The notes under the pieces: model-generated
What the model saw: the letters and a program-made list of their open reading frames with translations, nothing else
Told to the model about the DNA's origin: nothing
The model's database searches: none
Virus record (IMG/VR): IMGVR_UViG_3300031251_000003
Coordinates: 64,001-128,000 of that record
Strand: one strand, 5' to 3'
Length of the DNA stretch: 64,000 nucleotides
Source: a virus
Shown: piece after piece, positions 45,720 to 60,781 of the stretch
How the letters are laid out: each line of letters begins with the position of its first letter
How positions within the stretch are numbered: the first letter of the stretch is position 1
Program-made: the position numbers and the translations under genes

Positions 45720-45726
45720 TCTAAGC

Positions 45727-46027: not shown

Positions 46028-46061
46028 CATCCGTCTGGTCGTACCGGGATGACGTTAGAAA

Positions 46062-46147
46062 CTCCAAGTGGTGGAATTAGGTATACACGTCAGGTTGAGA
46101 GCCTGATGGCCATCGCGGTCTTGCAGGTTCAAATCCTGTCTTGGAGA
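46062..46147 (+). tRNA. tRNA-Leu(GAG)
   Basis: Cloverleaf with variable arm. Confidence 0.9.
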
Positions 46148-46169
46148 TCTCTTACAGGAGGTAAGAAAT

Positions 46170-46298
46170 ATGAATCCAATCTTTTGGCTTCTCTTGATTC
46201 TCTTGATTGTCATCCTTTTGGGTGGAGCAGTATTCAGCCATCTAATCTGGGTATTGATCATTGTAGTTGTCATCCTTTTCTTCCTCTTCGGAAGGTAA
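46170..46298 (+). CDS. 42-aa hydrophobic peptide
   Basis: RBS AGGAGGT; MNPIFWLLLILLIV... Confidence 0.65.
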   Translation: MNPIFWLLLILLIVILLGGAVFSHLIWVLIIVVVILFFLFGR

Positions 46299-46346
46299 GT
46301 CATGGCCGTTCCCTATTCTTATGCGGTCTGGGGTAACGGCCACCAT

Positions 46347-46419
46347 GGTTCTCTAGCTCCAACGGTAGAGCGGCTGTTTGAAGCACAGCGCGTTGGCGGT
46401 TCGAATCCGTCGGGAACCA
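46347..46419 (+). tRNA. tRNA-Phe(GAA)
   Basis: Cloverleaf. Confidence 0.9.
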
Positions 46420-46591
46420 CTGTAGTCGAAGATCCAAGAGCCTCGCTCCACTAAAGTTGGCTGTCTTATAATACAGCACCGGAAGAGAAACTCAAGGGGA
46501 GACGAAATTACGGAGACAAATAGATTAAGCTCCGTAAGATTTATGTTCTATCCTGATGCGTGAATGTTGATCACTAACAAAAGGAGAGAAC

Positions 46592-46792
46592 ATGAAGACA
46601 GCAGTAGGTACTGAAGATCTAACAGGCGCAGTAGTGGTTGATGTTGGCTACAATGATGTGACTCTTGAGAAGGATGGAGTCAGGTTTACTCTTGAACTTG
46701 AGTATGAAGCCGACTACAACAGTTTCTGCGAAGGTAGTTGCTCTTGTTGTGGTAGTTCTGGCTCATCGTACTTCCGGGCCTATAAGGAATAA
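46592..46792 (+). CDS. small Cys-rich hypothetical protein
   Basis: RBS AAGGAG. Confidence 0.65.
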   Translation: MKTAVGTEDLTGAVVVDVGYNDVTLEKDGVRFTLELEYEADYNSFCEGSCSCCGSSGSSYFRAYKE

Positions 46793-46842
46793 AGAATCGT
46801 CTGTCACGCCGGATCCTGACGTAAAACTTAGTCCGGCCACAT

Positions 46843-46915
46843 GGCTCTATAGACTAGTTGGTTAGGTCGCTACCCTCTCAAGGTAGAAGTCGGAGTTCGA
46901 GTCTCCGTAGAGCTA
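46843..46915 (+). tRNA. tRNA-Glu(CUC)
   Basis: Cloverleaf. Confidence 0.9.
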
Positions 46916-46919
46916 CTAT

Positions 46920-46998
46920 GATCACGCAGCCACAGGGCAGGGCGCGGCGACCCGACACTTTCTCGGGGAACATGGAGGTTCGAATCCTCTCGGGATCA
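46920..46998 (+). ncRNA. aberrant tRNA-like RNA
   Basis: T-arm and acceptor present; extra nucleotides before anticodon arm; loop CACTTTC lacks U33. Confidence 0.5.
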
Positions 46999-47230
46999 CT
47001 GTGGGATAGAAAGGGCAACAAAGCGATATAACTTGACGCATCAGGGAGAGTTAGTCCCCTACTATCCCCCTATACTTTAAGAACGTGTGTGTGACGCTGT
47101 GACGCAGCAGAGGCACACTTTCGGGCGGGGGCGTCACCCCACGGTACCGGCGCGGTTTGGGACAACCGTTGTAAGACGACCGGAGGCGGCTTAGCGGCTG
47201 CTGAGAGGGTTCTCAAATGTTCTTATACTA

Positions 47231-47301
47231 TGGCGTATCGTTCAACGGCAGGACGGGTGGCTGTTAACCATCTAATTCAGGTTCGAATCCTGGTATGCCA
47301 G
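47231..47301 (+). tRNA. tRNA-Asn(GUU)
   Basis: Cloverleaf. Confidence 0.9.
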
Positions 47302-47372
47302 CTTTAAATTCGTAGGGCACTACTCGCTGGTCGGACTAGTTTGCTGGCGAGCAACCCTACGGCGCGTTTCAT

Positions 47373-47443
47373 TCCCCGGTCGTCTAACGGTAGGGCAGAT
47401 GGCTGTTAACCATCGTATGAGGGTTCGATTCCTTCCTGGGGAG
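47373..47443 (+). tRNA. tRNA-Asn(GUU)
   Basis: Cloverleaf. Confidence 0.9.
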
Positions 47444-47607
47444 CTTCGCAGTACATTGTTCGTCGTCCGGGAGCATCGCGAGGCATAACGGGTAGCTCAG
47501 GGTTAAATTCCCTGATAGGGCGGCTAGCCCTAGACTGAACGTATTGATCCTTACTTGTTAAAGCGGGTTTGGGGAATGTGGCAATGTATTGCGCCGGTTT
47601 TAATCGT

Positions 47608-47648
47608 CGCGGATTAGAGAAAAGGTCATCTCGTGAGTCTCATAAACT
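47608..47648 (+). pseudogene. orphan 5' half of tRNA-Met(CAU)
   Basis: Acceptor 5' strand, D arm and anticodon loop, then HNH gene. Confidence 0.7.
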
Positions 47649-47652
47649 TTTC

Positions 47653-48048
47653 ATGAGTTTACGAACACTAATAGTAGAGATGCCATACAAAGATCCCGAA
47701 AAACAGAAAGAAGCACAGGCTAGATTAAGTGCTGCTTATTATCAAAAGAATAAGAAAAAGATGAAAGTTCGTGCAAAGCAGTATACATACGAACATCGAG
47801 AACGTCTTAAGCAGTTTTTGATAGAGATAAAGTCTGCTCCATGTATGGACTGTGGAAATTCGTTTCCATCATGTGTAATGGACTTTGATCACCGTGAGGG
47901 TGAAGAGAAAAACGGTTGTGTGTCTGTAATGGTGAACCGCGCACTAAGCTTAGATAGAATTAAACAAGAAGTATCTAAGTGCGACCTAGTATGTGCGAAC
48001 TGTCATCGGATTCGAACCTCCACGCGGAAACAAGCCCTGGTGGGCTAG
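47653..48048 (+). CDS. HNH homing endonuclease (start at 47653 or 47680)
   Basis: CMDC..MDFDH..KCDLVCANCHRIR. Confidence 0.88.
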   Translation: MSLRTLIVEMPYKDPEKQKEAQARLSAAYYQKNKKKMKVRAKQYTYEHRERLKQFLIEIKSAPCMDCGNSFPSCVMDFDHREGEEKNGCVSVMVNRALSLDRIKQEVSKCDLVCANCHRIRTSTRKQALVG

Positions 48049-48096
48049 GGAGTCTCATAAACTCTCTCATGGTCAGTTCGATTCTGACTTCCGCTA
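48023..48096 (+). tRNA. tRNA-Met(CAU), overlapping HNH 3' end
   Basis: CGCGGAA/TTCCGCT acceptor with 1:72 mismatch; GGAGT-CTCATAA-ACTCT. Confidence 0.7.
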
Positions 48097-48250
48097 TTTC
48101 AAAATGCAACTAGGCCGACATAGTTGCGCCATATGGTGAAATGATCGGCATACAATTCTGTCTAACCTAGATAGGAGCGCAAATAATCATGAAGTAAGTT
48201 ATAACCTTTGCTCGTATTTGAAGGTTAAATGATTATTCCGCATATACGTG

Positions 48251-48357
48251 AGACGAATGCCGCAGAAGCCGGAAACGTCTAGCAGGGTCAAGTCCGCGAT
48301 AATCAGCTTGATGCATTCCCTGTGAATACAGCGAAAGCCGCCGCCGAGGTTGAGTCT
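48251..48357 (+). ncRNA. orphan RNA motif copy 3
   Basis: GAAACGTCT 48272, AGCGAAAGC 48330. Confidence 0.55.
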
Positions 48358-48494
48358 GGATTACAGTGTATGTGATTATATGATATGATTTTAAGTTTGA
48401 TTCATCTTGACTGTGGAGCCGAAAGCTGAGAAGCAGATCAAGAAACTAATGTAGATACATCGAGGGGTCGCGCATCTCTAACACGCGAATATTT

Positions 48495-48584
48495 GGATAG
48501 GTACTCAAGAGGCTTAAGAGGATGGTTTGCTAAACCATTAGAGGATGTCAAAGTCCTGCCAGAGTTCGAATCTCTGTCTATCCG
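48495..48584 (+). tRNA. tRNA-Ser(GCU)
   Basis: Cloverleaf, long variable arm. Confidence 0.9.
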
Positions 48585-48655
48585 TGTAAGACGATCCGAA
48601 GACGATGGGAACGTACGCGCATATCATGCGTGGTGACAGTCTATTCGAGGATCAG

Positions 48656-48728
48656 TGAATTGTAGCTCAACGGTTAGAGCGTTCCCTTCATATGGGAAAG
48701 GTAGTCGGTTCGACTCCGATCAATTCCA
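48656..48728 (+). tRNA. tRNA with CAU anticodon (Met or Ile2)
   Basis: TTCCC-TTCATAT-GGGAA. Confidence 0.8.
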
Positions 48729-48816
48729 TTAAAGAGGATGGTAGCCGATAGGTTGGCGTGGGTGTGCTGATTCGGTGAGATGGTTCGTCCTGCCTCATAA
48801 GACCACGCGAGAATTT

Positions 48817-48903
48817 GGATATATGGCTGAGTGGATTAAAGCGCTAGTCTTGAAAACTAGTATGTGTGAAAGCGCATCCGGGGTTCGAATCCCTGTGTAT
48901 CCG
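48817..48903 (+). tRNA. tRNA-Ser(UGA)
   Basis: Cloverleaf, long variable arm. Confidence 0.9.
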
Positions 48904-49083
48904 TAGGATGGTTTACGACGTGGTAGTGTACGTTTGGCGCTTAAGTGCGTTCTGGCCGAGAATCAAAGGCATCCATCCTTGGGGTTAGAGACTTAGGATT
49001 CTGAGGCGAGCAACCTGAAATGGTAAGGAACGAATAACCGTTGCTGCGGCCTGTCGTTCAAACTGGATCAAGTCTCTTCTTTT

Positions 49084-49170
49084 GGAAACGTGGCCGAGAG
49101 GATTAAGGCGCAGACCTGGAAAGTCTGTTGGTATTTACGTGCTACGCAGGTTCGAATCCTGTCGTTTCCG
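49084..49170 (+). tRNA. tRNA-Ser(GGA)
   Basis: Cloverleaf, long variable arm. Confidence 0.9.
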
Positions 49171-49175
49171 CTCAT

Positions 49176-49310
49176 GGGGTGAAAATGGAGAGTCGTCTAG
49201 TTCGATTCTAGACTTGTGGATGGTTCCACGGCGGTTCAATTCCGCGTTATAAACTTGTGGCAGCAAATAGGGTAGCCCCCGCTCAGAGGGTTCAATTCCC
49301 TTACACTCCA
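49176..49310 (+). ncRNA. tRNA-like RNA with three T-arms and G3:U70 acceptor
   Basis: Three TTCRATT hairpins; GGGGTG/CACTCC-A. Confidence 0.6.
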
Positions 49311-49356
49311 TTTATTTACAATTAGGATTACTAATTACTCTTGTATAATAGATAGA

Positions 49357-49785
49357 ATGATTAATTCTAGAGTTTTAAATGAGAAAATAAAGGCCCAAAA
49401 GGAGATTACGAATCAACGATTCGCTGATTCAGAAAAAGCTGTTGCAGCAGCTTTAGCTGCTCAAGAAAAGGCAACAGCGGCAGCATTTGCGGCTGCAAAG
49501 GAAGCTGTCATCAAGGCAGAAATTTCCCAACAGCGTGTCAATGAAAGTCAGAATGAATTCCGTGGCCAGCTTAAAGATCAAAATGCCGCTACGGAACGTA
49601 ATATGATGCCTCGTGCTGAAACAGAGTTATTGGTTAGAGAAATTCGAAGTAGTATTCAGGATCTTCAGAAGAGCCGAGATACCATCACAGGCAAGTCAAT
49701 GGGGATAGCTAACTTGACTAGCTCTGTCTATGCGTTTATCTTTGCTATTGCAGCTATTGCAGCTATCGCAGGCCACTTTCTCTAA
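49357..49785 (+). CDS. coiled-coil protein with C-terminal TM anchor
   Basis: EKAVAAALAAQEKA..NEFRGQL. Confidence 0.75.
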   Translation: MINSRVLNEKIKAQKEITNQRFADSEKAVAAALAAQEKATAAAFAAAKEAVIKAEISQQRVNESQNEFRGQLKDQNAATERNMMPRAETELLVREIRSSIQDLQKSRDTITGKSMGIANLTSSVYAFIFAIAAIAAIAGHFL

Positions 49786-49804
49786 TATGCTATAATGTGA
49801 TCCC

Positions 49805-49957
49805 ATGAGGATCATTGGTGAACATTTCACTAGGCAGGGTAAGCCTAAGGTTACTTATGCGACCTTCCAGGGCGCTCAGAAGAAAGCACTGAAGCTTCAT
49901 ATGCGGGCTTATCAGTGTGGGTTTTGTGGCAAGTATTATCTAACGCATAAAGTTTAG
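49805..49957 (+). CDS. small basic Zn-ribbon protein
   Basis: RAYQCGFCGKYYLTH. Confidence 0.6.
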   Translation: MRIIGEHFTRQGKPKVTYATFQGAQKKALKLHMRAYQCGFCGKYYLTHKV

Positions 49958-50039
49958 GAAGATATCCGAACGGTTAGGAAGCGCCCTCGAAAAGCGCCGG
50001 TGTTCATAGCACTTGGGAGTTCGAATCTCCTGTCTTCCG
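49957..50039 (+). tRNA. tRNA-Ser(CGA)
   Basis: Cloverleaf with variable arm. Confidence 0.8.
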
Positions 50040-50255
50040 CTTATCGATAATCCGGGGATAGACCTAGGATTGTGACTGGATTAGGATCGCAACCTGATTA
50101 CGGCAATCTCATGATGGTCAGCTAGGGCCAGCACCTAGAATCGATTTCTAAAAGAACGACTCACGAAAGACTAGTGTAGGAAGGTAAGGGACGCAGGGTT
50201 GGGATGACGATCTCGACGCGCCTATTTCTGTATCTTTCGTGGGAAGGTTTAACAC

Positions 50256-50327
50256 ACGCCTTAGCCAATGGATAGGCAGATCGGCTCCAACCCGATCCAA
50301 AGGTGGGTTCGATTCCTACAAGGCGTG
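50256..50327 (+). tRNA. tRNA-Trp(CCA)
   Basis: ATCGG-CTCCAAC-CCGAT. Confidence 0.82.
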
Positions 50328-50349
50328 CTCAGTCTTATAAGGAGGATGT

Positions 50350-50682
50350 ATGCGAGTTCTATTACTGGTCTTGGTATTCTTGGTAATGGCAACGTCCGCG
50401 TTAGCATCTCCACCCCGCCCTGCGAGGGCTTTCGATACCTTATGGTGTTGGCAATTGAAAGTTCAGTACACGCTCAAGCTGGGATGGCAAGCTAAGCATT
50501 GGAAATGCAACCTAGGTAGTTGGGATCCGTATGCTAAAGAATGGACATATCGGGTCTGGGTTGATGAAGTAAAAGGTAGTCGTGTTTATCATGACTATGT
50601 GATCCTCTTTACAGACTTTGCTACTAAGAATTGGACACGAGTTCCCCATGGATATCCTGAAACAGGTGGTCTAAAGGGTTAA
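50350..50682 (+). CDS. secreted hypothetical protein
   Basis: RBS AAGGAGG; signal peptide ending ALA. Confidence 0.7.
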   Translation: MRVLLLVLVFLVMATSALASPPRPARAFDTLWCWQLKVQYTLKLGWQAKHWKCNLGSWDPYAKEWTYRVWVDEVKGSRVYHDYVILFTDFATKNWTRVPHGYPETGGLKG

Positions 50683-51022
50683 AGTGTGTACATCTCTTTC
50701 ACTGGATTCCAATGGTGTTCATGATTACAGTGACTGTGGAGCGAGAGCTTAGCACCAAGCGCACTCCTATTACTTGCACGGTTGGCTGATCGGTGTAAGC
50801 GCCACTCTTATAAGGTGGTTTAAGCTAGGTTCGACTGATATCCTGAAACAGGTGGTCTAAAGGGTTAAAGTGTGTACATCTCTTTCACTGGATTCCAATG
50901 GTGTTCATGATTACAGTGACTGTGGAGCGAGAGCTTAGCACCAAGCGCACTCCTATTACTTGCACGGTTGGCTGATCGGTGTAAGCGCCACTCTTATAAG
51001 GTGGTTTAAGCTAGGTTCGACT
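50651..51022 (+). repeat. perfect 186-bp tandem duplication
   Basis: 50651-50836 = 50837-51022; first copy holds a truncated tRNA-Ile. Confidence 0.92.
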
Positions 51023-51035
51023 CCTAGACCGTGTA
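50962..51035 (+). tRNA. tRNA-Ile(UAU)
   Basis: CCACT-CTTATAA-GGTGG. Confidence 0.85.
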
Positions 51036-51054
51036 CTTGTGCTATAATGTAGTC

Positions 51055-51549
51055 GTGAACGAAGAACGACAACAAGCTTGGAACCATTACTTCCAGACCG
51101 GCGATAGAGAACCAATCATCAAAGCCTACTGGAAGTCGATCAGTTACATTGCTCATGCTCGTTATCCGGCCTACGAAGAAGATATGTTCCAGGTCGGGCT
51201 AATGGGTTTGCTCAAGGCTATCAGTCGTATCGATGTCAATCGAGTCAAGTCTATTGATGCTTGGGTATGGTTGAATGTTCGTGGAGAAATGTTTAACGTA
51301 AAGCTTGCTAAGCCAACTCTTCCGATTGTTATCGAGTCAGAGAGGTTTGCTATCGAGGAAGACAAAGATCCAAAGATCTACATGCAACAGGCATTCGAGG
51401 TTCTAAACGAGCGCGATAGGTATATTCTTGATAGTATTTACTATAAGAATAAGACACGTCAGGCTCTAGGCAAGGAGTTGGGCATTACCGGCATGAGAGT
51501 CGGCCAACTAGAACAAAGAGCATTAAAGCAGTTGAGAGAAGTATTGTAA
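51055..51549 (+). CDS. sigma70-family RNA polymerase sigma factor
   Basis: EDMFQVGLMGLLKAI (region 2); LGKELGITGMRVGQLEQRALKQLR (region 4). Confidence 0.88.
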   Translation: MNEERQQAWNHYFQTGDREPIIKAYWKSISYIAHARYPAYEEDMFQVGLMGLLKAISRIDVNRVKSIDAWVWLNVRGEMFNVKLAKPTLPIVIESERFAIEEDKDPKIYMQQAFEVLNERDRYILDSIYYKNKTRQALGKELGITGMRVGQLEQRALKQLREVL

Positions 51550-51622
51550 GCACAGGTACTCAAGCGGTTAAGAGGCCACTCTGATAAGGTGGTATGCGAA
51601 AGTTCGAATCTTTCTCTGTGCA
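51550..51622 (+). tRNA. tRNA-Ile(GAU)
   Basis: Cloverleaf. Confidence 0.88.
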
Positions 51623-51697
51623 TAGGATCGGATTATTGATCCAAAGTAAGGCGACCAATATCGTGGCGCTAGCGAAAATCACAAAAACGACTTTACA

Positions 51698-51797
51698 GAT
51701 ATTTTCATTTGTAGGTTCGAATCCTACTCCCCGCTCTTCACGCGGGGATGGCGAAATTGGCAAACGCGCTGGGCGATCAGCCCGGTTGTGAAATATC
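51698..51797 (+). ncRNA. circularly permuted tRNA-like RNA (YrlA-like topology)
   Basis: Order T arm, loop-closed acceptor, D arm, hairpin; ends pair. Confidence 0.75.
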
Positions 51798-51875
51798 AAT
51801 CAAGCGAAAGTTGTGTTAGCTAGAATAAGGCGCGTGATGCTAGCCTTTTATTTAAGGTTATATGCCTCTTATAGT

Positions 51876-52020
51876 CTAGTGAGGATCAAAGAAACGTCTC
51901 ATGGTATGGGCTTCCAAACCTATACTACGTGTAGCTCAAATGGGAGAGCCGCCGCCTGAAAAGCGGTGGGTTGGGGGTTCGAGTCCCTCCACGAAAGTAG
52001 CGAAAGCTTTGGGAGTTAGT
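51876..52020 (+). ncRNA. orphan RNA motif copy 4 containing a tRNA-Phe(GAA)-like domain
   Basis: TCAAA-GAAACGTCT...[tRNA-like 51925-52000]AGCGAAAGC-TTTGG. Confidence 0.65.
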
Positions 52021-52051
52021 CGAGTGAAAAGTGGTTAATTAGCCTTATTCC

Positions 52052-52374
52052 GGGAGCGTCCCGGTTTCGATGTGGAATTACGGTTCTGACTTCAATCCGT
52101 GGAAACATGATGGCCACGTAAAAAACATGTAACGTACTAAATGCAAACGCTAATATGAGCGTCCCGGACTTCATCCCTGATTGGGTAATGGATGAGTCCT
52201 TAGTTGCTGCTTAACTAGGAAACCTAATAAGCAGAGACTCTCAGGAAAGACTGAGTGGCGGAGGGGCGACTGCCCTCCATGCTTGACAAGTACGACCGTG
52301 ATGGGTATAATCTATGATTGTAAGCGTTAGTTCAACGATTACCGCAGACGCGAGTTCGACTCTCGCCGCTTCCA
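52052..52374 (+). ncRNA. ssrA: tmRNA
   Basis: G3:U acceptor, CGGTTTCGA, T arm; tag ANANMSVPDFIPDWVMDESLVAA at 52143-52214. Confidence 0.92.
52283..52311 (+). promoter_or_regulatory. consensus promoter inside tmRNA
   Basis: TTGACA-17-TATAAT. Confidence 0.65.
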
Positions 52375-52409
52375 TATGTACTATATTTCACTCCCTCCAA
52401 AGGAAGTTA

Positions 52410-52604
52410 ATGCACGATAGATCAGACTACCATATCCACAAGGATGAGCAAGGGAAACTACACAGGTGTTACCACAACTGCCGAAATATCTTACCCAACT
52501 GGCAGTTCTGGGTTGGTATGACGATGGGATTCCCTCTCGAACATCTGATTTGGCAACATCTTTGGCCCTTCTATTTAGTTAGTAATCTTTTGGGCCTTTC
52601 GTGA
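52410..52604 (+). CDS. hypothetical protein
   Basis: MHDRSDYHIH..; RBS AAGGA. Confidence 0.6.
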   Translation: MHDRSDYHIHKDEQGKLHRCYHNCRNILPNWQFWVGMTMGFPLEHLIWQHLWPFYLVSNLLGLS

Positions 52605-52672
52605 CCTTGGCCGAGTGGTTTAGGTATGGCTCTGCAAAAGCTATTACATCAGTTCGAATCTGATAGGTCACT
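52601..52672 (+). tRNA. tRNA-Cys(GCA)
   Basis: Cloverleaf, U73. Confidence 0.9.
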
Positions 52673-52784
52673 TGAAGTACAATGTTTCATACAGGATCTA
52701 CCTCTGGCTCATAGCTAGGCGGTTTAGATTTGAATGGTTGGAAAGGCTGGTTCGTAAACCTATAAACCAGAGATGGAGAAGGTA

Positions 52785-52985
52785 ATGGCACAGTTGCAGA
52801 AGACATTCATTGCACGATTCTACGATAGCTCACGACATCAATTTGCTACCAACAAGGTAGTCGCGGCAAACTTCGTGATGGCAGGAGAAGTTGCCCATGA
52901 GTGGGCAGAAGATCACTACCATGGACGTGCAACGAAGATCAAACTAGAATCCTCCAAAGGTGGAGAAGTTGTGTGTTCCGACTAA
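52785..52985 (+). CDS. hypothetical protein upstream of rpsL
   Basis: RBS GGAGAAGG. Confidence 0.6.
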   Translation: MAQLQKTFIARFYDSSRHQFATNKVVAANFVMAGEVAHEWAEDHYHGRATKIKLESSKGGEVVCSD

Positions 52986-52997
52986 AAGGAAGGGTGT

Positions 52998-53399
52998 ATG
53001 GCGACAATTAATCAGCTTGTAAGAAAGGGCCGAACGGCCAAGAGGAAGAAGGATAAGTCCCGTCATTTAAAGGGTAACCCTCAGGTTGCCGGTACTGTCT
53101 TGCGCGTCATGGTTCTCAACCCTTGTAAGCCGAATTCTGCCGAACGTCATTCGTGCAGGGTTAGACTCTCCAATGGCGGTGAGGTAACCTGTTACGTCCC
53201 TGGTCGTGGTATGAATATCCAGGAGCACAGCAGAGTCCTTGTTCGCGGCGGAATTGCTCCTGATCTCCGTGGAGTCAAGTACAAGGTTGTCCGTGGTAAT
53301 CGTGACTGTGCCGGGGTCAGTGATGAGATGGGTGGAAAGAAGAATTCCACACCAGTTCCTCGTAAGAATTCTCGTTCACTCTACGGAGTGAAGAAGTAG
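52998..53399 (+). CDS. rpsL: ribosomal protein uS12, divergent, phage-encoded
   Basis: [29 protein letters not shown]...DL.GV, RSLYGVK. Confidence 0.95.
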
Positions 53400-53511
53400 T
53401 GTTACATCACCTTATCGCTCGTTCCGATGCCTGTTGACGCAGGCTTAGGGAGCAAAACTGAAGCGTCAACTTCGTCTCAATATCGGCACAAGCCGAAGCG
53501 ATAAGGATCTT

Positions 53512-53595
53512 GCCCGCCTGGTGGAATGGTATACACGGTTGGCTTAAACCCAACTGCCTATAACGGGCTTGCGAGTTCGAATCTCGCGGTGGGTA
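53512..53595 (+). tRNA. tRNA-Leu(UAA)
   Basis: Cloverleaf with variable arm. Confidence 0.9.
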
Positions 53596-53617
53596 CTTGG
53601 TAAGGATGGTAGTTCAT

Positions 53618-53701
53618 ACCGGTGTGCTGGAATTAGGTATACAGGGGCGTCTCAAAAACGTCTGCTCAAAAGGCATGAGAGTTCGATTCTCTCCATCGGT
53701 A
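53618..53701 (+). tRNA. tRNA-Leu(CAA)
   Basis: Cloverleaf with variable arm. Confidence 0.88.
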
Positions 53702-54000
53702 CTGTCGGTATCACGCTGGCGCTCTAAGGAGTCGAGGCCGAATATCGGGATGCATCTCGTGAGAGAAGGGGATCTTGACGCCCGGAGTTTTGTCTTTATG
53801 TCTGAAACTCCTTTATGTTCAATAAACTAACTCATAACGGTACAGCACCTGAGTCAGTGGATGGAGTCGTCTAGTTCTCTAACAGTCAAATTGGCGTCCT
53901 TTCTAGATAAGGTAATCCTCTAAGATTGAGATTGACTAGCGGCGAACTTGAGGTACGGAAGTACCTTAGCCGACGACATTTATGATAAACTGTAGTATTA

Positions 54001-54073
54001 CCCTCCATAGCTTCAACGGTAAAGCACGGGCCTTTTAAGCCATGAGTTCTGGGTTCGAATCCTAGTGGGGGGA
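54001..54073 (+). tRNA. tRNA-Lys(UUU)
   Basis: Cloverleaf; imperfect anticodon stem. Confidence 0.78.
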
Positions 54074-54150
54074 CTTGAGATCTAGGGTGTGGGTTATACG
54101 TCCACGTTTCCTTATAGGCGATGCGCTCGGTAGTGTCGTGATCTCTATTA

Positions 54151-54223
54151 GCCCTCTTAATTCAGTGGACAGAATGTTAGCCTTCGAAGCTAAACGTCGG
54201 GAGTTCGAATCTCTCAGAGGGTA
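54151..54223 (+). tRNA. tRNA-Arg(UCG)
   Basis: TTAGC-CTTCGAA-GCTAA. Confidence 0.88.
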
Positions 54224-54237
54224 TCTAGAAAGAAGAC

Positions 54238-54266
54238 TTGACAACCAGACAACAATGAGGTATACT
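54238..54266 (+). promoter_or_regulatory. sigma70-type promoter
   Basis: TTGACA-17-TATACT. Confidence 0.8.
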
Positions 54267-54272
54267 TAAGCC

Positions 54273-54491
54273 GTGGCTAAGAAACACAAGCCGAAGGAAA
54301 AGACTGAAACGAAGTTTTCGAAGTATCTTCCCGGCGAGAGTACATGGACGGGACGACGCAATAAGACGAGGCAGGATCTAATCCCAATGGGTCAACGTGA
54401 TCGCGTTGAAACAGCACAGAAGATCAGATCCTTCTCGATGCAGCATAAGCCATCTTGCACTAAAGATTGGCTGAAGTTGCGAGTACATTGA
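54273..54491 (+). CDS. small basic protein (leaderless)
   Basis: GTG 6 nt after -10. Confidence 0.55.
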   Translation: MAKKHKPKEKTETKFSKYLPGESTWTGRRNKTRQDLIPMGQRDRVETAQKIRSFSMQHKPSCTKDWLKLRVH

Positions 54492-54653
54492 TAACTTAGG
54501 TGGTGGTACCGGGAACCCCGATCCGGTGACGCGGAAGCGTATGGTGTAAGGGTTATGCACGCCACATGTACTAAGCCTTGGGATGCGATTCTCAAGGTAC
54601 CCTTTCTAGCAGGGGATGTGCCTGGGCACCGCTCCAGAGCCAGCTAGATGTAA

Positions 54654-54727
54654 CTGGATGTAGGAAAGCTTGGTAATCCGTCTGCTTTGGGAGCAGAAGA
54701 GCGTGAGTTCGAATCTCACCGTCCAGA
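54654..54727 (+). tRNA. tRNA-Pro(UGG)
   Basis: Cloverleaf. Confidence 0.9.
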
Positions 54728-54730
54728 CTG

Positions 54731-54939
54731 AAGAGTTAGGAGGTTGGCCTAAAGGCAGCCACCCTTTAAAGAGTAGACTTACGTGAGCCGACCACGCTGA
54801 GCGAAAGCCTATTTGAGAGTCATGATCGCGCAAAGGTGACAATGATCCCGCGCCCGGAATGGCAACATGACGAAGACCAAGGAAACGACTTGGAAGAATA
54901 AACGGGTTAGTCTTTTGGCGTAACAGCACACTATCTCTT
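54731..54939 (+). ncRNA. 23S rRNA GTPase-associated-centre (H43-H44) mimic with 143-nt insert
   Basis: TAGGAGGTTGGCCTAAAGGCAGCCACCCTTTAAAGAGT...GCGTAACAGCACACTA closed by AAGAG/CTCTT. Confidence 0.85.
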
Positions 54940-54949
54940 TTAGAATTGA

Positions 54950-55024
54950 CTGGATATAGCTCAGCCTGGTTAGAGTACGCCCTTGGGGAGGGTGAGGCCG
55001 CAAGTTCGAATCTTGCTATCCAGA
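54950..55024 (+). tRNA. tRNA-Pro(GGG)
   Basis: Cloverleaf. Confidence 0.88.
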
Positions 55025-55027
55025 TAA

Positions 55028-55098
55028 CAGGATGTTGTATAGTGGTAATATACTTGCTTCGGGAGCATGAGTCAGAGGTTCGAGTCCTCTCATCCTGA
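55028..55098 (+). tRNA. tRNA-Pro(CGG)
   Basis: Cloverleaf. Confidence 0.85.
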
Positions 55099-55154
55099 TA
55101 TGTACTAGCTTTCTTATGGTGATCTCGCCCTACTAATGGGTAGGTGATAAATAA

Positions 55155-55322
55155 ATGAGACAACATATAGAAGGTGGATTACTTTCATTCTTAGGATTAT
55201 GTGCTGCTGCTCTCTTCTTTGGTCTTCTCGTATTTGGAGGATCCATTAGCGATTGGCCATTAGAGGTAGCAGGCTTCTTTGCTCTAGCTATTGCGTTCGT
55301 TCTGGAACGCTTAGGGTTGTAA
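55155..55322 (+). CDS. 55-aa membrane peptide
   Basis: MRQHIEGGLLSFLGLCAAALFF... Confidence 0.6.
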   Translation: MRQHIEGGLLSFLGLCAAALFFGLLVFGGSISDWPLEVAGFFALAIAFVLERLGL

Positions 55323-55557
55323 GACTCCGCTGGAATGCGGCGCATAGGGAGGTTCTTCGAGCCGTTGATCTATGTGATGGTGGAAACCGTGCCCGTTGAG
55401 CCGGGTAAAGGTACGACTAGCCATCGTATCGAAAGCGTAGGGCAGCGCGGTTGTAGCTGGTGGTGAGGGCGCAGCTATGGTATGGCTAAACGCCGAATCG
55501 TTCGAAGCGACAAGGCTTACGGGGTTGGTAATTCTCACGACTTGCCGATCCCGCCAA

Positions 55558-55629
55558 TGCGGTGTAGTCTAATGGTAGTGACTTCCGGCTCTGAACCGGA
55601 CAGTGTTGGTTCGAATCCAGCCTCCGCAG
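55558..55629 (+). tRNA. tRNA-Gln(CUG)
   Basis: Cloverleaf. Confidence 0.88.
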
Positions 55630-55919
55630 CTAACTCTAACGAGTAACAAGTGATTACAGCCGCTGATTGCCACGAGCGGTAAAGGATGGTCTTTTATGCC
55701 GGACGCTAGAATATGGCAGGTATAAAACTAAGTGTGTGGGTACCCGTAGCAATCACAGCCGCCGTTTTGTAATCCAGGATGTGGATTGTCGAGGTATGGT
55801 ATAGACACCACTTCTAGAAATCCACCATACATGCGCTACCTTGGAAAGGTGTAACGGTTCATAACCTGCCTTTCCTCCAATCCCCACTTAGGCTGAAATA
55901 TACCTAGGTGGGGAACCAA

Positions 55920-56000
55920 GCATATGTTGAGCAAAGGCTAGCTCCGCTGTCTGTAAAACAGCCGTCTCCGACTATGTAGGTTCGAATCCTACCATATGCA
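55920..56000 (+). tRNA. tRNA-Tyr(GUA)
   Basis: Cloverleaf with variable arm. Confidence 0.85.
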
Positions 56001-56004
56001 CTGA

Positions 56005-56076
56005 TGGGAAATCGGTTAATGGTTAAACCAAGAGCCTTTGAAGCTCTGACTTTGGGTTCGAGTCCCAATTTCCCTA
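56005..56076 (+). tRNA. tRNA-Gln(UUG)
   Basis: Cloverleaf. Confidence 0.85.
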
Positions 56077-56113
56077 TAGGTCAAGCTGGTGGGCCTGAAG
56101 CACTAGCATTTAC

Positions 56114-56187
56114 GGAAGCGTAGCTCAGTTGGTTAGAGCACCGGCCTGTCACGTCGGTAGTCGCGGGTTCGAGTCCCGTCGTTTCCG
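56114..56187 (+). tRNA. tRNA-Asp(GUC)
   Basis: Cloverleaf. Confidence 0.93.
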
Positions 56188-56418
56188 CTCTTTGGACGAT
56201 GACCTGTGGAAGGATTTATGCCAAACTTCCTAAAGGGTAAAAAGCTAGCGAGTAAGGCGAAGCTGGGGCACCACAAAATGCGTCAGTGGATGAAAGCTAG
56301 CGAATCAAGCTGCTGTAGGCATAACGGTAGTGTAATGAGCGAGTCTAACTCAAGTATTTTCGCTCCACCGTCCAAGGTTTTAAGTTGACCAATCATAATT
56401 TGTATGATATACTAAGTC

Positions 56419-56592
56419 ATGGTTACTAAAACGGACATAAAAACTCTTGAATTCGATGTAGATGGGAAGACAATCGAGCTTCAAGTTAAATGTGAGTTGG
56501 TTAGTAAAACTTGGAAACTTACGATTAATTGTAAGGATCCCGGTCGTGTTGAGTTTGAAACCATCATGAGTAAGATGGGTGTTATAAGATAA
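56419..56592 (+). CDS. hypothetical protein (leaderless)
   Basis: TTGACC-17-TATACT then ATG 5 nt later. Confidence 0.6.
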   Translation: MVTKTDIKTLEFDVDGKTIELQVKCELVSKTWKLTINCKDPGRVEFETIMSKMGVIR

Positions 56593-56596
56593 ATAA

Positions 56597-56672
56597 CGGG
56601 GTGTGGTGTAGTCCGGTCTAACACGCTTGCCTGTCACGCAAGAGAACGAGGGTTCAAATCCCTTCATCCTGA
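56597..56672 (+). tRNA. tRNA-Asp(GUC)
   Basis: Cloverleaf. Confidence 0.85.
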
Positions 56673-56742
56673 TTGAAGATCGTCTAAAGTAGGACGCCTG
56701 GTTTAACGGGAGATTCTAGAGGTTAACGTCTCTGGCTTCAAA
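56673..56742 (+). pseudogene. degenerate tRNA-like element
   Basis: Acceptor and D arm; non-consensus T loop. Confidence 0.4.
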
Positions 56743-56748
56743 ATACTT

Positions 56749-56823
56749 GCCTCGTTGGTCTAGCGGTCTAGGATACCGGGTTTTCACCCCGCGTGAACAA
56801 GGGTTCGAATCCCTTACGAGGTA
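56749..56823 (+). tRNA. tRNA-Glu(UUC)
   Basis: Cloverleaf. Confidence 0.85.
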
Positions 56824-56835
56824 CCTTAATAAAAA

Positions 56836-57167
56836 TTAGACACCAGGGTTTCAGAGCAAAGCGGTAGCTCCGAGCGCTCTTATGAGATCTTGGGTGTTGT
56901 GACGGAAAAGTGCCTATCTTGCTTCCGCAAAGCGGTGAGCTAGGTATTGAACGTATAAGCGGCGAAAGCTCTGGGCAACCGGAGCCGGTAGCAGCCGAAG
57001 TAAAGGAATCGAAACCAGCGGCTTAGCGGCTGAGGGACTAGGTTCTGGGCGGGGGTTGTACCTCGTACAGTGGTGGCTCGACAGGGCAGCGGAAGTAGAA
57101 GAGAAACCATATGACAAGGTAGCTTGCCTCTTCTTGCGGGATACCAAGACCCGCCAACACAGTCTAA
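56836..57167 (+). ncRNA. large orphan structured RNA
   Basis: Ends pair; long-range complements; GNRA hairpins. Confidence 0.55.
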
Positions 57168-57207
57168 ATCTTGGGGATGTTTGGGTAAAACTGAGCATCC
57201 CCACCAA

Positions 57208-57283
57208 CCTTCAGTAGCTCAACGGTAGAGCGGTACGCTGTATGGAAGCGTTCGGGTTGCGAGTTCAATTCTCGTCTGAGGGT
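57208..57283 (+). ncRNA. tRNA-like RNA with enlarged anticodon arm
   Basis: Canonical D, T and acceptor; 4 extra nt in anticodon arm. Confidence 0.65.
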
Positions 57284-57348
57284 CTTCTCGCTCGACACTC
57301 CCCTCCTAGGCCAATGATCTAGCCCGTGGGAAAGTGCGGCGAGTTCTA

Positions 57349-57421
57349 GCCAGCCTCGTATAACGGCATATTACACCGCACTTGTAATGCGGGTATTTCG
57401 GTTCAATTCCGAAGGTTGGCT
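57349..57421 (+). tRNA. tRNA-Thr(UGU)
   Basis: Cloverleaf. Confidence 0.88.
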
Positions 57422-57526
57422 CTCGTGTGTGGAAATGAAACTATGTGACGAGCGCGTTCCGGCATAGAAGTAGTGGCCTTTCTGGGTTCGAGTCCCAGCA
57501 CCGATTTATCAAAACAAGGAGGCACT

Positions 57527-57880
57527 TTGCTGAAATGGCTAAAGTTGCCGATACTAACTGTACTAATCCTAAGTAGTTTGGGAAATCTCAGGACAAACGG
57601 CGCTAAAGCTGTCTCAGTTCGTAGTCTCACTGTTTTAGAGACTGCCTATTGTCTTAGGGGAACTATGGCCAACGGCCACTATGTTCACCCTGGGGCAATA
57701 GCGGTTGATCCAAGAGTTATTCCTATGGGATCTCGTATCTTTGTCCCCGGCTATGGTTGGGGAACAGCAGAGGATACGGGTGGTGCAATTATCGGCTATC
57801 ATATCGATGTATGGATGAGCGATTGCTCACAAGCTATGAGATCTACCCGATGGAATGTACGGATCAAAATTTCACGTTGA
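57527..57880 (+). CDS. secreted 3D-domain (MltA-like) cell-wall protein
   Basis: TAY..AVDPRVIPMGS..AEDTGGAI..IDVW; RBS AAGGAGG. Confidence 0.88.
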   Translation: MLKWLKLPILTVLILSSLGNLRTNGAKAVSVRSLTVLETAYCLRGTMANGHYVHPGAIAVDPRVIPMGSRIFVPGYGWGTAEDTGGAIIGYHIDVWMSDCSQAMRSTRWNVRIKISR

Positions 57881-58017
57881 GTGGGAAGGTAACAAATATA
57901 GGTGGCATTTGGGGCCAAATGGCTATGCCGAAATTACTAGAAGAGTTAGCTAAATGTGATGTTGTTTGTGCTAACTGCCATCTTCGTAGACATCATTCCG
58001 CGTTGTTCGTAGACTAA
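57880..58017 (+). pseudogene. HNH endonuclease C-terminal remnant
   Basis: EELAKCDVVCANCHLRRH, no N-terminal half. Confidence 0.75.
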
Positions 58018-58076
58018 TTGGTTAAGTCCCTACCCTGTGAAGGTAGCCTATACGGGTTCGAATCCCGCCGAACAAC
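58002..58076 (+). tRNA. tRNA-His(GUG)
   Basis: G-1:C73; CTACC-CTGTGAA-GGTAG. Confidence 0.85.
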
Positions 58077-58143
58077 TCAAGGGGATCTCCTTGATATGCC
58101 GTGGTTCGTCGGTTACGAATTCTTGGAGCAAGATCCCCTCCAT

Positions 58144-58257
58144 GCAGCAGTCGCTTAAGTGGGAAAGCACCTACTGATAAAGAAGTCTCCATGGTTATAG
58201 ACCGGTCAAACGGTGGAGATTTGTAGGAGATCATTGGTTCGAATCCAGTCTGTTGTT
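58144..58257 (+). ncRNA. tRNA-like RNA with large insertion in anticodon arm
   Basis: Acceptor, D and T arms canonical; CCTAC/GTAGG enclose ~48 nt. Confidence 0.7.
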
Positions 58258-58261
58258 CTTT

Positions 58262-58336
58262 GAGAGATTAGCATAATTGGACTAATGTTCCAGGTTGTGA
58301 TCCTGGCTAATTTCGGTTCGAATCCGAAATCTCTCT
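58262..58336 (+). tRNA. tRNA-His(GUG)
   Basis: CCAGG-TTGTGAT-CCTGG. Confidence 0.78.
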
Positions 58337-58429
58337 TGCCTTGATAACCCCAGTCGCTTCGGCGGCTCCGAGATAGGCACGGAATGAAACAGACCATTGG
58401 GAGCAGATGGCTTTAGCCGATCTGTTTTC

Positions 58430-58502
58430 GCCTGAGTAGTGATAACGGTCAGCACACATCCTTGGTAAGGATGGAGTTTGGGTTCGATTCCCAGCTTGGG
58501 CT
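58430..58502 (+). tRNA. tRNA-Thr(GGU)
   Basis: Cloverleaf. Confidence 0.9.
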
Positions 58503-58503
58503 T

Positions 58504-58635
58504 ATGAGTAACTTCAAACGCAAGAAATCAAGACGTTCGGTAAAGTGTACCATGTGTACACCATTTAGATGGTTAGGAAATACCAAAGAACGGCGACCCT
58601 TTAAAGACCGTCGCCAACTTCAGAAGGAGGAATAG
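58504..58635 (+). CDS. 43-aa basic CxxC peptide
   Basis: MSNFKRKKSRRSVKCTMCTPFRWLGN... Confidence 0.55.
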   Translation: MSNFKRKKSRRSVKCTMCTPFRWLGNTKERRPFKDRRQLQKEE

Positions 58636-58637
58636 CA

Positions 58638-59366
58638 TTGGCAGCAGTTGATCAGGCAATCTATGTTATCATCGATGGCAGTGGCTCGATGAGTAGCGTG
58701 AAGCATGATGTAGTCAAGGGCATTAACGATTTCATTACGGAACAGCAGGACGACATCAAGGGCACACAGGATGTTGTGTTGTTTTCTCTGACATCCTTTG
58801 ACACGAATGTCCAGGAAATCTACGTGAGAGAGAATCTAGAGCTAGTCAATCCTGTCTCTTTGAAGGATACTTACTTGGGCGGTGGTACATCTCTTCTAGA
58901 TGCTATTGGCCGTACACTGACTAAGGCTGAGGATGAACAGGCTGATCGTAACATCGTCGTGATCTATACCGATGGTGGCGAGAATTCAAGTCATGAGTTC
59001 ACTAAGACTCAGGTTGGTGATTTGATCGACAAGCTGACTGGTACAGGAGATTGGCAGATCATCTATCTCGGTGCTGAGTTTGCCGACTTCGCAGAAGATC
59101 GTCAGGGCTTTGGTGCTATTGCTGGTGCCGCAGCGGGTGGTACCTTTACTGGTATGAACACGTCGAAGAATGATGTTGGTGCCACGTTCTCTAACCTGTC
59201 CCAGACATCCATCTATTACAGAGGGATGCACACCAATTCTGCTAAGAATCTTGTTGCTCGCGGTGGAGTCGTGGCCGCAGCAGCGGAGGATATTGGCCTT
59301 ACCTGGAACGAGGATGACACAACGGTTATTCCGGCCGATGTAGTGGAACCTAAGAAGAAAGCCTAG
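58638..59366 (+). CDS. von Willebrand factor A domain protein
   Basis: MIDAS DGSGSM, GGTSLLDAIG, YTDGGENSS, YLGA. Confidence 0.9.
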   Translation: MAAVDQAIYVIIDGSGSMSSVKHDVVKGINDFITEQQDDIKGTQDVVLFSLTSFDTNVQEIYVRENLELVNPVSLKDTYLGGGTSLLDAIGRTLTKAEDEQADRNIVVIYTDGGENSSHEFTKTQVGDLIDKLTGTGDWQIIYLGAEFADFAEDRQGFGAIAGAAAGGTFTGMNTSKNDVGATFSNLSQTSIYYRGMHTNSAKNLVARGGVVAAAAEDIGLTWNEDDTTVIPADVVEPKKKA

Positions 59367-59407
59367 GGGAGAGGACGCCATCTGCTCTCTAAAAAATGAT
59401 GGCACTA

Positions 59408-59478
59408 GCCAGTTTAGTATAGTGGGAATACTCGCCTTTCGTAAGGGCGAAACTAGGGTTCGATTCCCTAATCTGGCT
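59408..59478 (+). tRNA. tRNA-Thr(CGU)
   Basis: Cloverleaf. Confidence 0.85.
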
Positions 59479-59514
59479 CTGCTTATCAGGCGCGTCCCGG
59501 TAGCTCCGGGTTAA

Positions 59515-59586
59515 GAGCGTGTAGTTCAGCGGGAGAACGTCTGGGTGACAACCAGAAGATCGTAGGTTCGATTCCTACCATGCTCA
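59515..59586 (+). tRNA. tRNA-Val(GAC)
   Basis: Cloverleaf. Confidence 0.88.
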
Positions 59587-59654
59587 TACGGCCCTTGTGG
59601 GGTCCAAAACAATACAAATTCTATTTAGATCTGAAAGGGATAAGGTGAATAGAT

Positions 59655-59843
59655 ATGAAGACTCGTTGGATGATTATTCCGACCGTGGTGGCCCTTTTAG
59701 GTATGATTGTTGTGTTCGTAGTCGGGTATCTTACTTACGGTATTTGGGCCGGTTTCTTTGTTTCTATTCTTTTCGGAGTTATTAGCTTGATTCTTCTCAT
59801 CTGGGCTGCTATAATGGATGGAGAAGATAATACGCATGTATAG
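59655..59843 (+). CDS. small membrane protein
   Basis: Two TM segments. Confidence 0.6.
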   Translation: MKTRWMIIPTVVALLGMIVVFVVGYLTYGIWAGFFVSILFGVISLILLIWAAIMDGEDNTHV

Positions 59844-59906
59844 CAAAGTTGGTATTGCGCTTCCTTGCCATGGAAGAGGCCACGAGTTCGAGTCTCGTTA
59901 CATGCT
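59834..59906 (+). tRNA. tRNA-Gly(GCC)
   Basis: Cloverleaf. Confidence 0.88.
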
Positions 59907-59910
59907 TTAC

Positions 59911-59982
59911 GCACCAGTAATGTAGTGGTTAACATGACAGTCTTCCAAACTGTATACCAGAGTTCGAATCTCTGTTGGTGCA
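59911..59982 (+). tRNA. tRNA-Gly(UCC)
   Basis: Cloverleaf. Confidence 0.88.
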
Positions 59983-59986
59983 TCGT

Positions 59987-60059
59987 TGCTCCGTAGATTA
60001 GAGGACAAATCACTTCCCTGCGAAGGAAGAAATCACGAGTTCGAATCTCGTCGGGGCTA
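59987..60059 (+). tRNA. tRNA-Arg(GCG)
   Basis: CTTCC-CTGCGAA-GGAAG. Confidence 0.85.
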
Positions 60060-60097
60060 TAGTTCAGCTAACACCGATTTATGATATAATAGGTATC

Positions 60098-60422
60098 TCA
60101 GTAGATGGACATACGCTGCATCGTGTATCTATCGGTGTAGAGGAAGTTCGGGACATCCTTCTAGGGGAGCCAAGGAACCTAGAGAAAAACGTGCGGCAGT
60201 AGTGGGAGTCAGGTGCATTGGGTAAACCTTCGGGCATAATGCGGTGCTATCACCCTCCTGACGCCTTACCACGAGAATCGGCGGGATGCGATCACAAGCA
60301 GATACATCAGCTACGATGATATCGGGTAGTGAGCAGCCCTTCGGGGCCAGGGATTGAACAGACCCTGAGATAGATGTATGTCGCCCTTGACAGGGTACAA
60401 AATTCCGGCTATAATCTACTGA
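60098..60422 (+). ncRNA. rnpB: RNase P RNA
   Basis: P1 TCAGTAGAT/ATCTACTGA, P2 GACATAC/GTATGTC, P4 GAGGAAGTTCGGG and ACAAAATTCCGGCTAT; TATAAT just upstream. Confidence 0.85.
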
Positions 60423-60432
60423 AGCAATGTAC

Positions 60433-60504: not shown

Positions 60505-60506
60505 CT

Positions 60507-60767: not shown

Positions 60768-60781
60768 TGTACCCAATCTAA

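Follow-up and report, generated by a model that had tools for sequence, protein, structure and literature searches.

Why should a soil phage carry, in the midst of its transfer RNA (tRNA) genes, a ribosomal protein of the decoding centre, and why should that copy be changed at the positions known for streptomycin resistance and dependence? The question is raised by positions 64,001 to 128,000 of IMG/VR virus record IMGVR_UViG_3300031251_000003 (the window, hereafter the whole 64,000-nt stretch of DNA that was analysed), in which an open reading frame (ORF) on the plus strand encodes a homologue of uS12, the product of rpsL in bacteria. An earlier note on this locus had described an S12 altered at the accuracy residues and offered three roles for it: retuned decoding, protection of the infection from aminoglycosides or A-site toxins, or work off the ribosome as an RNA chaperone. 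Our analysis indicates that the phage uS12 is most likely a functional paralogue, long kept in a lineage that carries a near-complete tRNA and transfer-messenger RNA (tmRNA) island. On balance we infer that it enters 30S subunits during infection and that it retunes decoding there, a reading towards which, for incorporation and effect alike, we lean modestly.

A full-length uS12 in a viral clade

The gene and its presumptive ribosome-binding site lie as follows:

52986-52994, plus strand: Shine-Dalgarno-like AAGGAAGGG 5' of the S12 ATG, read from the sequence
52998-53399, plus strand: phage uS12 gene, 133 aa, recognised from the ORF, Pfam PF00164, S12 matches in the PDB and a structural model

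The ORF at 52998-53399 is confirmed as a full-length ribosomal protein uS12 homologue. It scores 88.7 bits against PF00164 (Ribosom_S12_S23; cutoff 22.3, E 2.7e-25), with the match covering profile positions 2-103 of 110, and a phmmer search of solved bacterial S12 chains in the PDB aligned residues 1-110 at ~50% identity (best E 1.9e-33). An AlphaFold2 (AF2) model, built from the alignment of the clade described below, takes the form of the S12 oligonucleotide/oligosaccharide-binding (OB) barrel, with strands at 29-40, 50-57, 62-66, 79-84 and 95-98, a predicted local distance difference test score (pLDDT) of 77-90 in the core and a C-terminal tail modelled at low confidence; the top 50 Foldseek matches of this model in the PDB are all uS12 (E ~2e-11). 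The full-length S12, collinear with that of E. coli and preceded by a ribosome-binding site, that the earlier note had seen is therefore borne out by PF00164, phmmer and AAGGAAGGG. There is a single S12 gene in the whole genome, and its GC content at third codon positions (GC3) is like that of phage genes. Contigs from an independent rhizosphere run (X2) span 52700-53461, and thus the whole S12 gene, with 0 differences, and a contig from run X3 spans 52987-53153, codon 42 included, again with 0 differences; because the gene is identical in independent samples, its substitutions are not assembly errors.

A search of 5.8 billion proteins placed the phage uS12 in a 17-member metagenomic clade at 59-73% identity, above the ~56% reached by bacterial S12; in a clade-profile search of 50%-identity representatives, the clade collapses to a few representatives. 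No clade member was found in INPHARED by tblastn, where matches had ordinary S12 lengths and at most 52% identity, several of them on bacterial whole-genome shotgun records or unannotated fragments. Nor was there one among the best 80 S12 loci of GTDB species genomes, all of which were at most 57% identical and lacked the C-terminal insertion of the viral proteins, and PHROGs holds no family for S12. Searches of IMG/VR for further lineage members by way of the sigma factor encoded near S12 returned none beyond one contig already in the set. Further insertion-bearing S12 genes are present in IMG/VR on contigs of 83-442 kb, none beside rpsG or fusA, with neighbours of phage replication type that include an intein-bearing PolA, an SNF2 helicase, an exonuclease fused to uracil-DNA glycosylase (UDG) and TnpB. 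On one such viral contig, a family A DNA polymerase gene with a LAGLIDADG-domain intein (L016 5008-8391) has S12 ~2.3 kb upstream. Three other S12s of 197-211 aa, on short metagenomic contigs (P0002, P0005 and P0007), contain an internal partial duplication of the core and could be either tandem fusions or chimeric assemblies.

Contigs of the clade are syntenic with the window: S12 is surrounded by 39-45 tRNAs in the same order, with a sigma factor on its upstream side, RtcB and ribonucleotide reductase on its downstream side, and a small ORF that runs up to or into its start; a tmRNA was present in three of the four lineages examined. The order of the array, with S12 embedded in it, matches that of the window in L001, L003 and L007, and at least 10 syntenic contigs, which come from different samples, have kept S12.

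In a careful IQ-TREE phylogeny of 78 rows and 124 columns, one branch, with ultrafast bootstrap (UFboot) 97 and SH-like approximate likelihood-ratio (SH-aLRT) support of 88, separates every one of the 45 cellular rows from 30 S12s of viral or metagenomic origin, of which 17 make up the clade and 13 are others. A quick tree of 129 rows gives the same division between viral and cellular proteins. Given this split, the phage uS12 is not nested among host S12 proteins, as the phylogeny called for by the earlier note might have found it; the tree carries no host-phylum signal, and the deeper order is beyond what 124 columns resolve. The dN/dS comparison that the note had also called for gave no sign of neutral decay. 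Pairwise Nei-Gojobori estimates within the clade put nonsynonymous divergence (dN) at 0.10-0.42 and the dN/dS ratio (omega) at most at ~0.05-0.18, values that are bounds, not estimates, since synonymous divergence (dS) is saturated in all pairs. Of the 64 columns conserved at 95% or more among bacteria, the phage uS12 retains 49 (47-54 in other clade members); it breaks two clade-invariant sites, compared with 0-3 in the other members. The phage S12 is under strongly purifying selection and is not decaying.

These results bear directly on the alternative that the gene is a recently captured host gene drifting as a passenger. Phages do at times acquire ribosomal genes, mis-binning also occurs, and several of the S12 matches in phage databases do look cellular. 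Against it stand the retention of S12 in at least 10 syntenic contigs, saturated dS with omega below 0.2 and a deep separate clade, together with an intact ORF with a ribosome-binding site, phage-like GC3 and a CheckV-complete contig with structural genes. We regard a drifting passenger as extremely improbable, and effectively refuted by the selection estimates and the tree.

Changes and retained residues in the decoding loops

Three regions of the protein, in E. coli mature S12 numbering here and throughout, set the phage uS12 apart or anchor the comparison:

53121-53141, plus strand: decoding loop 1, P41-A47, reading P-C-K-P-N-S-A, with K42C at the TGT codon 53124-53126 (alignment and position table)
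53247-53279, plus strand: decoding loop 2, G83-R93, with R85I, V86A, K87P, P90R and R93K, and D88 kept (sequence and position table)
53319-53369, plus strand: C-terminal insertion region, ~12 residues more than E. coli S12 (alignments)

Loop 1 retains six of its seven residues, K42 having become Cys at a position that is K or R in 80 of 80 bacteria and in 16 of the 16 other clade members. In loop 2, G83, G84, D88, L89 and G91 are retained, and the RVKDLP of E. coli reads IAPDLR (R85I, V86A, K87P and P90R; 53253-53270); further towards the N-terminus, PQKR reads PQVA (K29V, R30A). The protein is thereby changed at each of K42, K87 and P90, the streptomycin-resistance and dependence positions. 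The 12 extra residues sit between DCAGV and SRSLYG, and an insertion of 9-14 aa is common to the clade and to other S12s on viral contigs. Conserved throughout bacteria, clade and window are P41, K43, P44, N45, S46, A47, R49, Q74, E75, H76, G83, G84, D88, G91 and Y94, and the N-terminal MxTxNQLxRK anchoring tail is, like the Q74-E75-H76 triad of the EF-Tu relay, invariant in the window and the clade. D88 is the residue that RimO beta-methylthiolates in bacterial S12. Every substitution that the earlier note had listed is thus present, as are the kept D88, the kept triad and the insertion of ~12 aa.

The note's picture of an S12 altered at its accuracy residues needs qualification in one respect, in that only K87P is a property of the clade, whereas K42C, R85I and P90R, like R30A, are confined to this genome. 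K87P occurs in 17 of 17 clade members and in none of 80 bacteria (K in 66, R in 13, S in one), alongside the other clade-wide changes V32T, C33V, T38V, T40N/D/K, L48N/K/E, K50H, V51C, E69R/K, H71M and L73I; P90 and K42, and for the most part R85, are otherwise retained in the clade. K87P was also found in one cellular S12 (L110, P0029), the sole S12 of a canonical S12-S7-EF-G-EF-Tu-S10-L3-L4 operon, and is for that reason compatible with a working ribosome. This cellular protein groups with a Babeliaceae S12 in the tree.

The private changes fall where laboratory genetics has found interactions. In Thermus, bulky substitutions of P90, including P90R, distort h44 and cause streptomycin dependence, and mutations of K42 are intragenic suppressors of P90 streptomycin-dependence alleles (PMC3884664); in Klebsiella, P90R is likewise a streptomycin-dependent (SmD) allele (PMC4182516). 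The same association is visible across our alignment of 129 sequences, where K42 is replaced in all four proteins in which P90 is replaced and in five of the 125 others (Fisher p ~1e-5), and R85 is changed in eight of the nine K42-substituted sequences. The latter include two Actinomycetota metagenome-assembled genomes (MAGs; L069 and L100) with K42R and R85S, which are natural cellular variants at 'resistance' positions. We suggest that K42C, R85I and P90R are best read from these alignments as a mutually compensating set and not as damage. Covariation of this kind would be expected of residues that share rRNA contacts in a working ribosome, and neither decay nor a role off the ribosome accounts for it readily.

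The same substitutions could be turned to the opposite purpose, with a dominant-negative or regulatory S12 entering assembling 30S subunits, or binding an assembly factor, and so slowing host ribosome biogenesis or translation as a form of shut-off. The binding surfaces are conserved while pocket residues are altered, and changes of the P90R type alone cripple tRNA selection and give streptomycin dependence in bacteria. However, the crippling P90R is confined to one genome of a clade that otherwise retains P90, K42 and mostly R85, K42 is changed along with P90 as it is in known suppressors, and a phage that invests in 46 tRNAs and a tmRNA needs active ribosomes. We therefore consider host shut-off through this protein highly unlikely.

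A translation island and a co-conserved small ORF

The window comes from a 158,106-bp IMG/VR virus record of 100% CheckV completeness, and PHROGs matches in it include a tail sheath, a baseplate wedge, virion proteins and rIIA; the source genome is a bona fide myovirus. Its habitat is rhizosphere soil, and its closest cultured relatives, Mycobacterium cluster C and Gordonia and Rhodococcus myoviruses, are distant (tail sheath ~31% identity). The surroundings of S12 are as follows:

42276-60854, plus strand: translation island of 18.6 kb on one strand, with 46 tRNAs for all 20 amino acids and a tmRNA (ARAGORN)
51031-51549, plus strand: sigma-70-family factor gene in the island (Pfam Sigma70_r4 and r2), syntenic with its L001 homologue and 43% identical to it
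52052-52374, plus strand: tmRNA gene directly 5' of the S12 cassette (ARAGORN; Rfam RF00023, 96 bits)
52283-52311, plus strand: perfect sigma-70 consensus TTGACA-17-TATAAT, a consensus match only, 5' of tRNA-Cys, the partner ORF and S12
52601-52672, plus strand: tRNA-Cys(GCA), 5' flank of the cassette (ARAGORN, Rfam)
52785-52985, plus strand: co-conserved partner ORF of 66 aa (70 aa from the alternative start at 52773), with its stop 12 nt before the S12 ATG
53512-53596, plus strand: tRNA-Leu(TAA), 3' flank of the cassette (ARAGORN, Rfam)

The cellular str-operon context (rpsL-rpsG-fusA-tufA) was not found around the phage S12, whose neighbours are the tmRNA, tRNA-Cys, the 66-aa ORF and tRNA-Leu; the absence of rpsG, fusA and tuf reported in the earlier note is accordingly upheld. 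The sigma-70 consensus falls within the 3' part of the tmRNA gene, a second promoter-like site with 11 of 12 consensus positions lies further down the island (54238-54266), and the count of sigma-70-type sites in the island region is not above shuffled expectation.

The search of 5.8 billion proteins gave a family of 11 members for the ORF that ends just before S12, each of them on a contig of this phage lineage; in nine of the ten contigs examined, the ORF runs up to or into the S12 start. Its omega of ~0.2-0.45 (with dS saturated) indicates purifying selection. The protein has no Pfam or PHROG match; its model is a beta-beta-alpha-beta arrangement (pLDDT 85.6) for which a Foldseek search of the PDB returned nothing at E <= 1e-3 and a structure atlas search returned viral hypothetical clusters only. 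The best VIA-align matches, to eL20/LX ribosomal proteins, PaaB, PurS, AcrIE2 and T7 Gp2, have Z of 5.4-6.8, and were rejected as homologues since such values are too low to tell homology from a small alpha/beta arrangement that is common. The predicted complex of S12 and partner scored 0.23 against a mark of 0.32, a score that speaks neither for binding nor against it. The conserved translational coupling of the two genes suggests that the partner may work together with S12, perhaps as its chaperone, loader or regulator.

A setting so rich in structured RNA invites the alternative of an extraribosomal RNA chaperone or assembly helper, which would bind the long island transcript, with its tRNAs, tmRNA and structured spacers, or nascent rRNA transiently and aid its folding or processing. 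The S12 gene lies midway in the 18.6-kb island with tRNA genes directly flanking it, and the RNA past its stop is very stably structured: at 53410-53506, between the S12 stop and tRNA-Leu(TAA), it is predicted to form a self-closed three-way junction with a minimum free energy of -43 kcal/mol (z -5.3 against shuffles). S12 acts as a transient chaperone of pre-16S rRNA and helps S4 to bind (PMC10296100), and review passages place it among the chaperones of phage T4 intron splicing. However, this activity is non-specific and needs high concentrations (PMC10296100), the RNA structure is not conserved in relatives (no clear equivalent 3' of S12 in eight related contigs), and a chaperone leaves unexplained the invariant PNSA tip, the QEH triad, D88 and the N-terminal tail that anchors S12 in the 30S subunit. 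Nor does the suppressor-like covariation of 42, 85 and 90 make sense anywhere other than beside h44, h27 and h18. We judge this alternative unlikely, and favour the ribosome because a non-specific RNA binder would not need the retained decoding residues.

A second alternative, counter-defence, would have the phage uS12 render ribosomes insensitive to aminoglycosides, A-site ribotoxins or abortive-infection effectors, or serve as a decoy for a factor that recognises host S12. Phage tRNAs and tmRNA are often seen as counter-measures to defences that target translation, and this phage bears both; it also inhabits rhizosphere soil, the home of aminoglycoside producers, and K42, K87 and P90 are the classical positions of streptomycin resistance and dependence. 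Yet resistance alleles are recessive to wild-type rpsL, so that sensitivity is dominant, and rpsL counter-selection is built on this (PMC4182516, refs 24, 25); a minority of resistant ribosomes would not rescue the cell. Aminoglycoside protection is thus improbable, given that ribosomes with host S12 would still be poisoned. In addition, K87P also occurs in a cellular housekeeping S12, and the island ORFs gave no informative Pfam matches, with no specific toxin or defence partner identifiable near S12. Counter-defence as a whole seems to us distinctly unlikely. Among the three roles put forward in the earlier note, retuned decoding is therefore the one that best fits the data, with protection from aminoglycosides set back by the dominance of sensitivity and the chaperone role by the retention of the PNSA tip, QEH and D88.

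Joint action of S12 with the adjacent phage tmRNA was also considered and dropped, as SmpB makes no contact with S12 and trans-translation is little affected by streptomycin (PMC3929946). The tmRNA tag of the phage is unusually long, at 23 residues (ANANMSVPDFIPDWVMDESLVAA); the tags of relatives differ from it and also end in LVAA.

The island and its relatives hold several other features of interest. A tRNA-His with anticodon ATG (A34) lies at 57208-57284 beside normal tRNA-His(GTG) copies and is kept in a second phage of the lineage (L003 9560-9636). Between two tRNA-Pro genes, 54734-54791 gives a sub-threshold Rfam match to bacterial large-subunit (LSU) rRNA (model 1091-1152, 21 bits, E 0.006), and a permissive Rfam scan of 42000-61300 found neither a small-subunit (SSU/16S) fragment, a possible S12-binding decoy, nor an RNase P RNA at E <= 0.1. 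In related arrays, ARAGORN reports a tRNA with a four-base anticodon (taag; L001 14389-14464), possibly of the frameshift-suppressor type, and short 'tRNA-SeC' genes with anticodon TCA (L006 219-289 and L007 3701-3771) that could read UGA as suppressors. The related 72-kb contig L001 also encodes an IF1-like protein (PF01176) beside its tRNA array (854-1069), of which there is none in the complete genome of the window.

A proposed specialised decoding protein among known systems

In bacterial S12, the positions concerned govern how the decoding site is balanced between its open and closed forms, and with this accuracy, speed and the response to streptomycin. We propose that the phage uS12 would be made from the island transcript during infection and would take the uS12 position in 30S subunits, mainly in those assembled post-infection. 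The parts needed for a seat in the ribosome and for signalling to EF-Tu would be those retained, namely the N-terminal tail, the P41/K43-P44-N45-S46-A47 tip, Q74-E75-H76 and D88, while the basic and proline residues that hold h18, h27 and h44 at the streptomycin pocket would have been remodelled, by K87P clade-wide and by K42C, R85I and P90R in this phage. The outcome would be a ribosome modified by the phage, its selection of tRNAs altered to suit the tRNAs and codon usage of the phage itself. We also regard it as possible, while leaning somewhat against it, that tRNA-rich soil phages of one lineage make specialised ribosomes of their own: the uS12 variant, perhaps delivered or regulated by the partner, would replace host uS12 and alter decoding-centre gating, and translation would then be optimised for the complete tRNA set and tmRNA of the phage.

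Several points weigh against incorporation into the ribosome. The main objection is that uS12 is deeply embedded and late-assembling and lies outside the set of loosely bound, exchangeable proteins (bS21, bL12, bL9, bL31 and bL33) that viruses, as Mizuno et al. (2019) argue, favour; as it is buried and not known to exchange, incorporation would require 30S assembly during infection. The RNA-chaperone activity of S12 makes an extraribosomal role possible (PMC10296100), the covariation statistic ignores phylogeny and rests on ~2 independent P90 events, and the proposal does not explain what the C-terminal insertion and the partner protein are for.

How, then, does this protein compare with what is known? 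Relative to bacterial uS12 (rpsL), the phage protein is ~50% identical to those of E. coli, Thermus and Mycobacterium and has the same OB core, N-tail, PNSA, QEH and D88, but it is encoded in a tRNA array and not in a str operon, belongs to a viral clade and carries K87P and a C-terminal insertion of 9-14 aa. With laboratory rpsL alleles (K42X, K87X and P90X) it shares the positions changed and, in P90R, the substitution of an SmD allele; its changes differ in being natural and fixed, in a second, phage-borne copy, and C42, I85 and P87 are not among the laboratory alleles listed in PMC3884664 and PMC4182516. Among phages, the nearest systems are the actinobacteriophage myoviruses (cluster C Bxz1 and Myrna, and Gordonia and Rhodococcus relatives), which resemble this phage in genome size (~150-165 kb) and in a sheath of ~31% identity. 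Bxz1/Myrna-type phages presumably also resemble it in carrying large sets of tRNAs together with a tmRNA, although tblastn found no match to this S12 in them, and the present lineage has 47% GC.

Virus-encoded ribosomal proteins form a further parallel. Known examples are peripheral and exchangeable, which in the accepted view is why viruses can use them. Mizuno et al. (2019) reported 14 in total, among them bS21, bL12, bL9, bL31, bL33, bS6, uS9, uS15 and HPF, with incorporation into host ribosomes shown experimentally only for bS21 and bL12; S12 is absent from that list, even though PF00164 was among the screening hidden Markov models (HMMs). Al-Shayeb et al. (2020) reported S1, S4, S21 and L7/L12 in phages, and our full-text literature searches, whose coverage is incomplete so that a report elsewhere is possible, found no published phage uS12 or rpsL. 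The statement in the earlier note that reported phage ribosomal proteins are mostly peripheral, and not of the decoding centre, is in line with both surveys in so far as neither lists S12.

If the proposed role is true, phages can reach beyond the surface of the ribosome and reprogramme its functional core, where uS12 shapes the decoding site and governs translational accuracy, and this would be the first virus to replace a core decoding-site ribosomal protein. The natural, compensated set at 42, 85, 87 and 90 could serve as a tool for studying the gating of tRNA selection by S12, the conjunction of S12 with a complete tRNA set and tmRNA makes phage-specialised translation directly testable, and the 11-member partner family would be a new protein family tied specifically to this S12. 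The phage uS12 suggests, in short, that there are phages which remodel the host ribosome at its core. It is like other virus-encoded ribosomal proteins in its phage location, its conservation among relatives, its purifying selection and its presumed replacement of a host protein, and unlike them in being a buried decoding-centre protein with changes at accuracy residues and a dedicated small partner. Virus-encoded ribosomal proteins as such were already known; what is new is a core decoding-site ribosomal protein in a dedicated viral clade.

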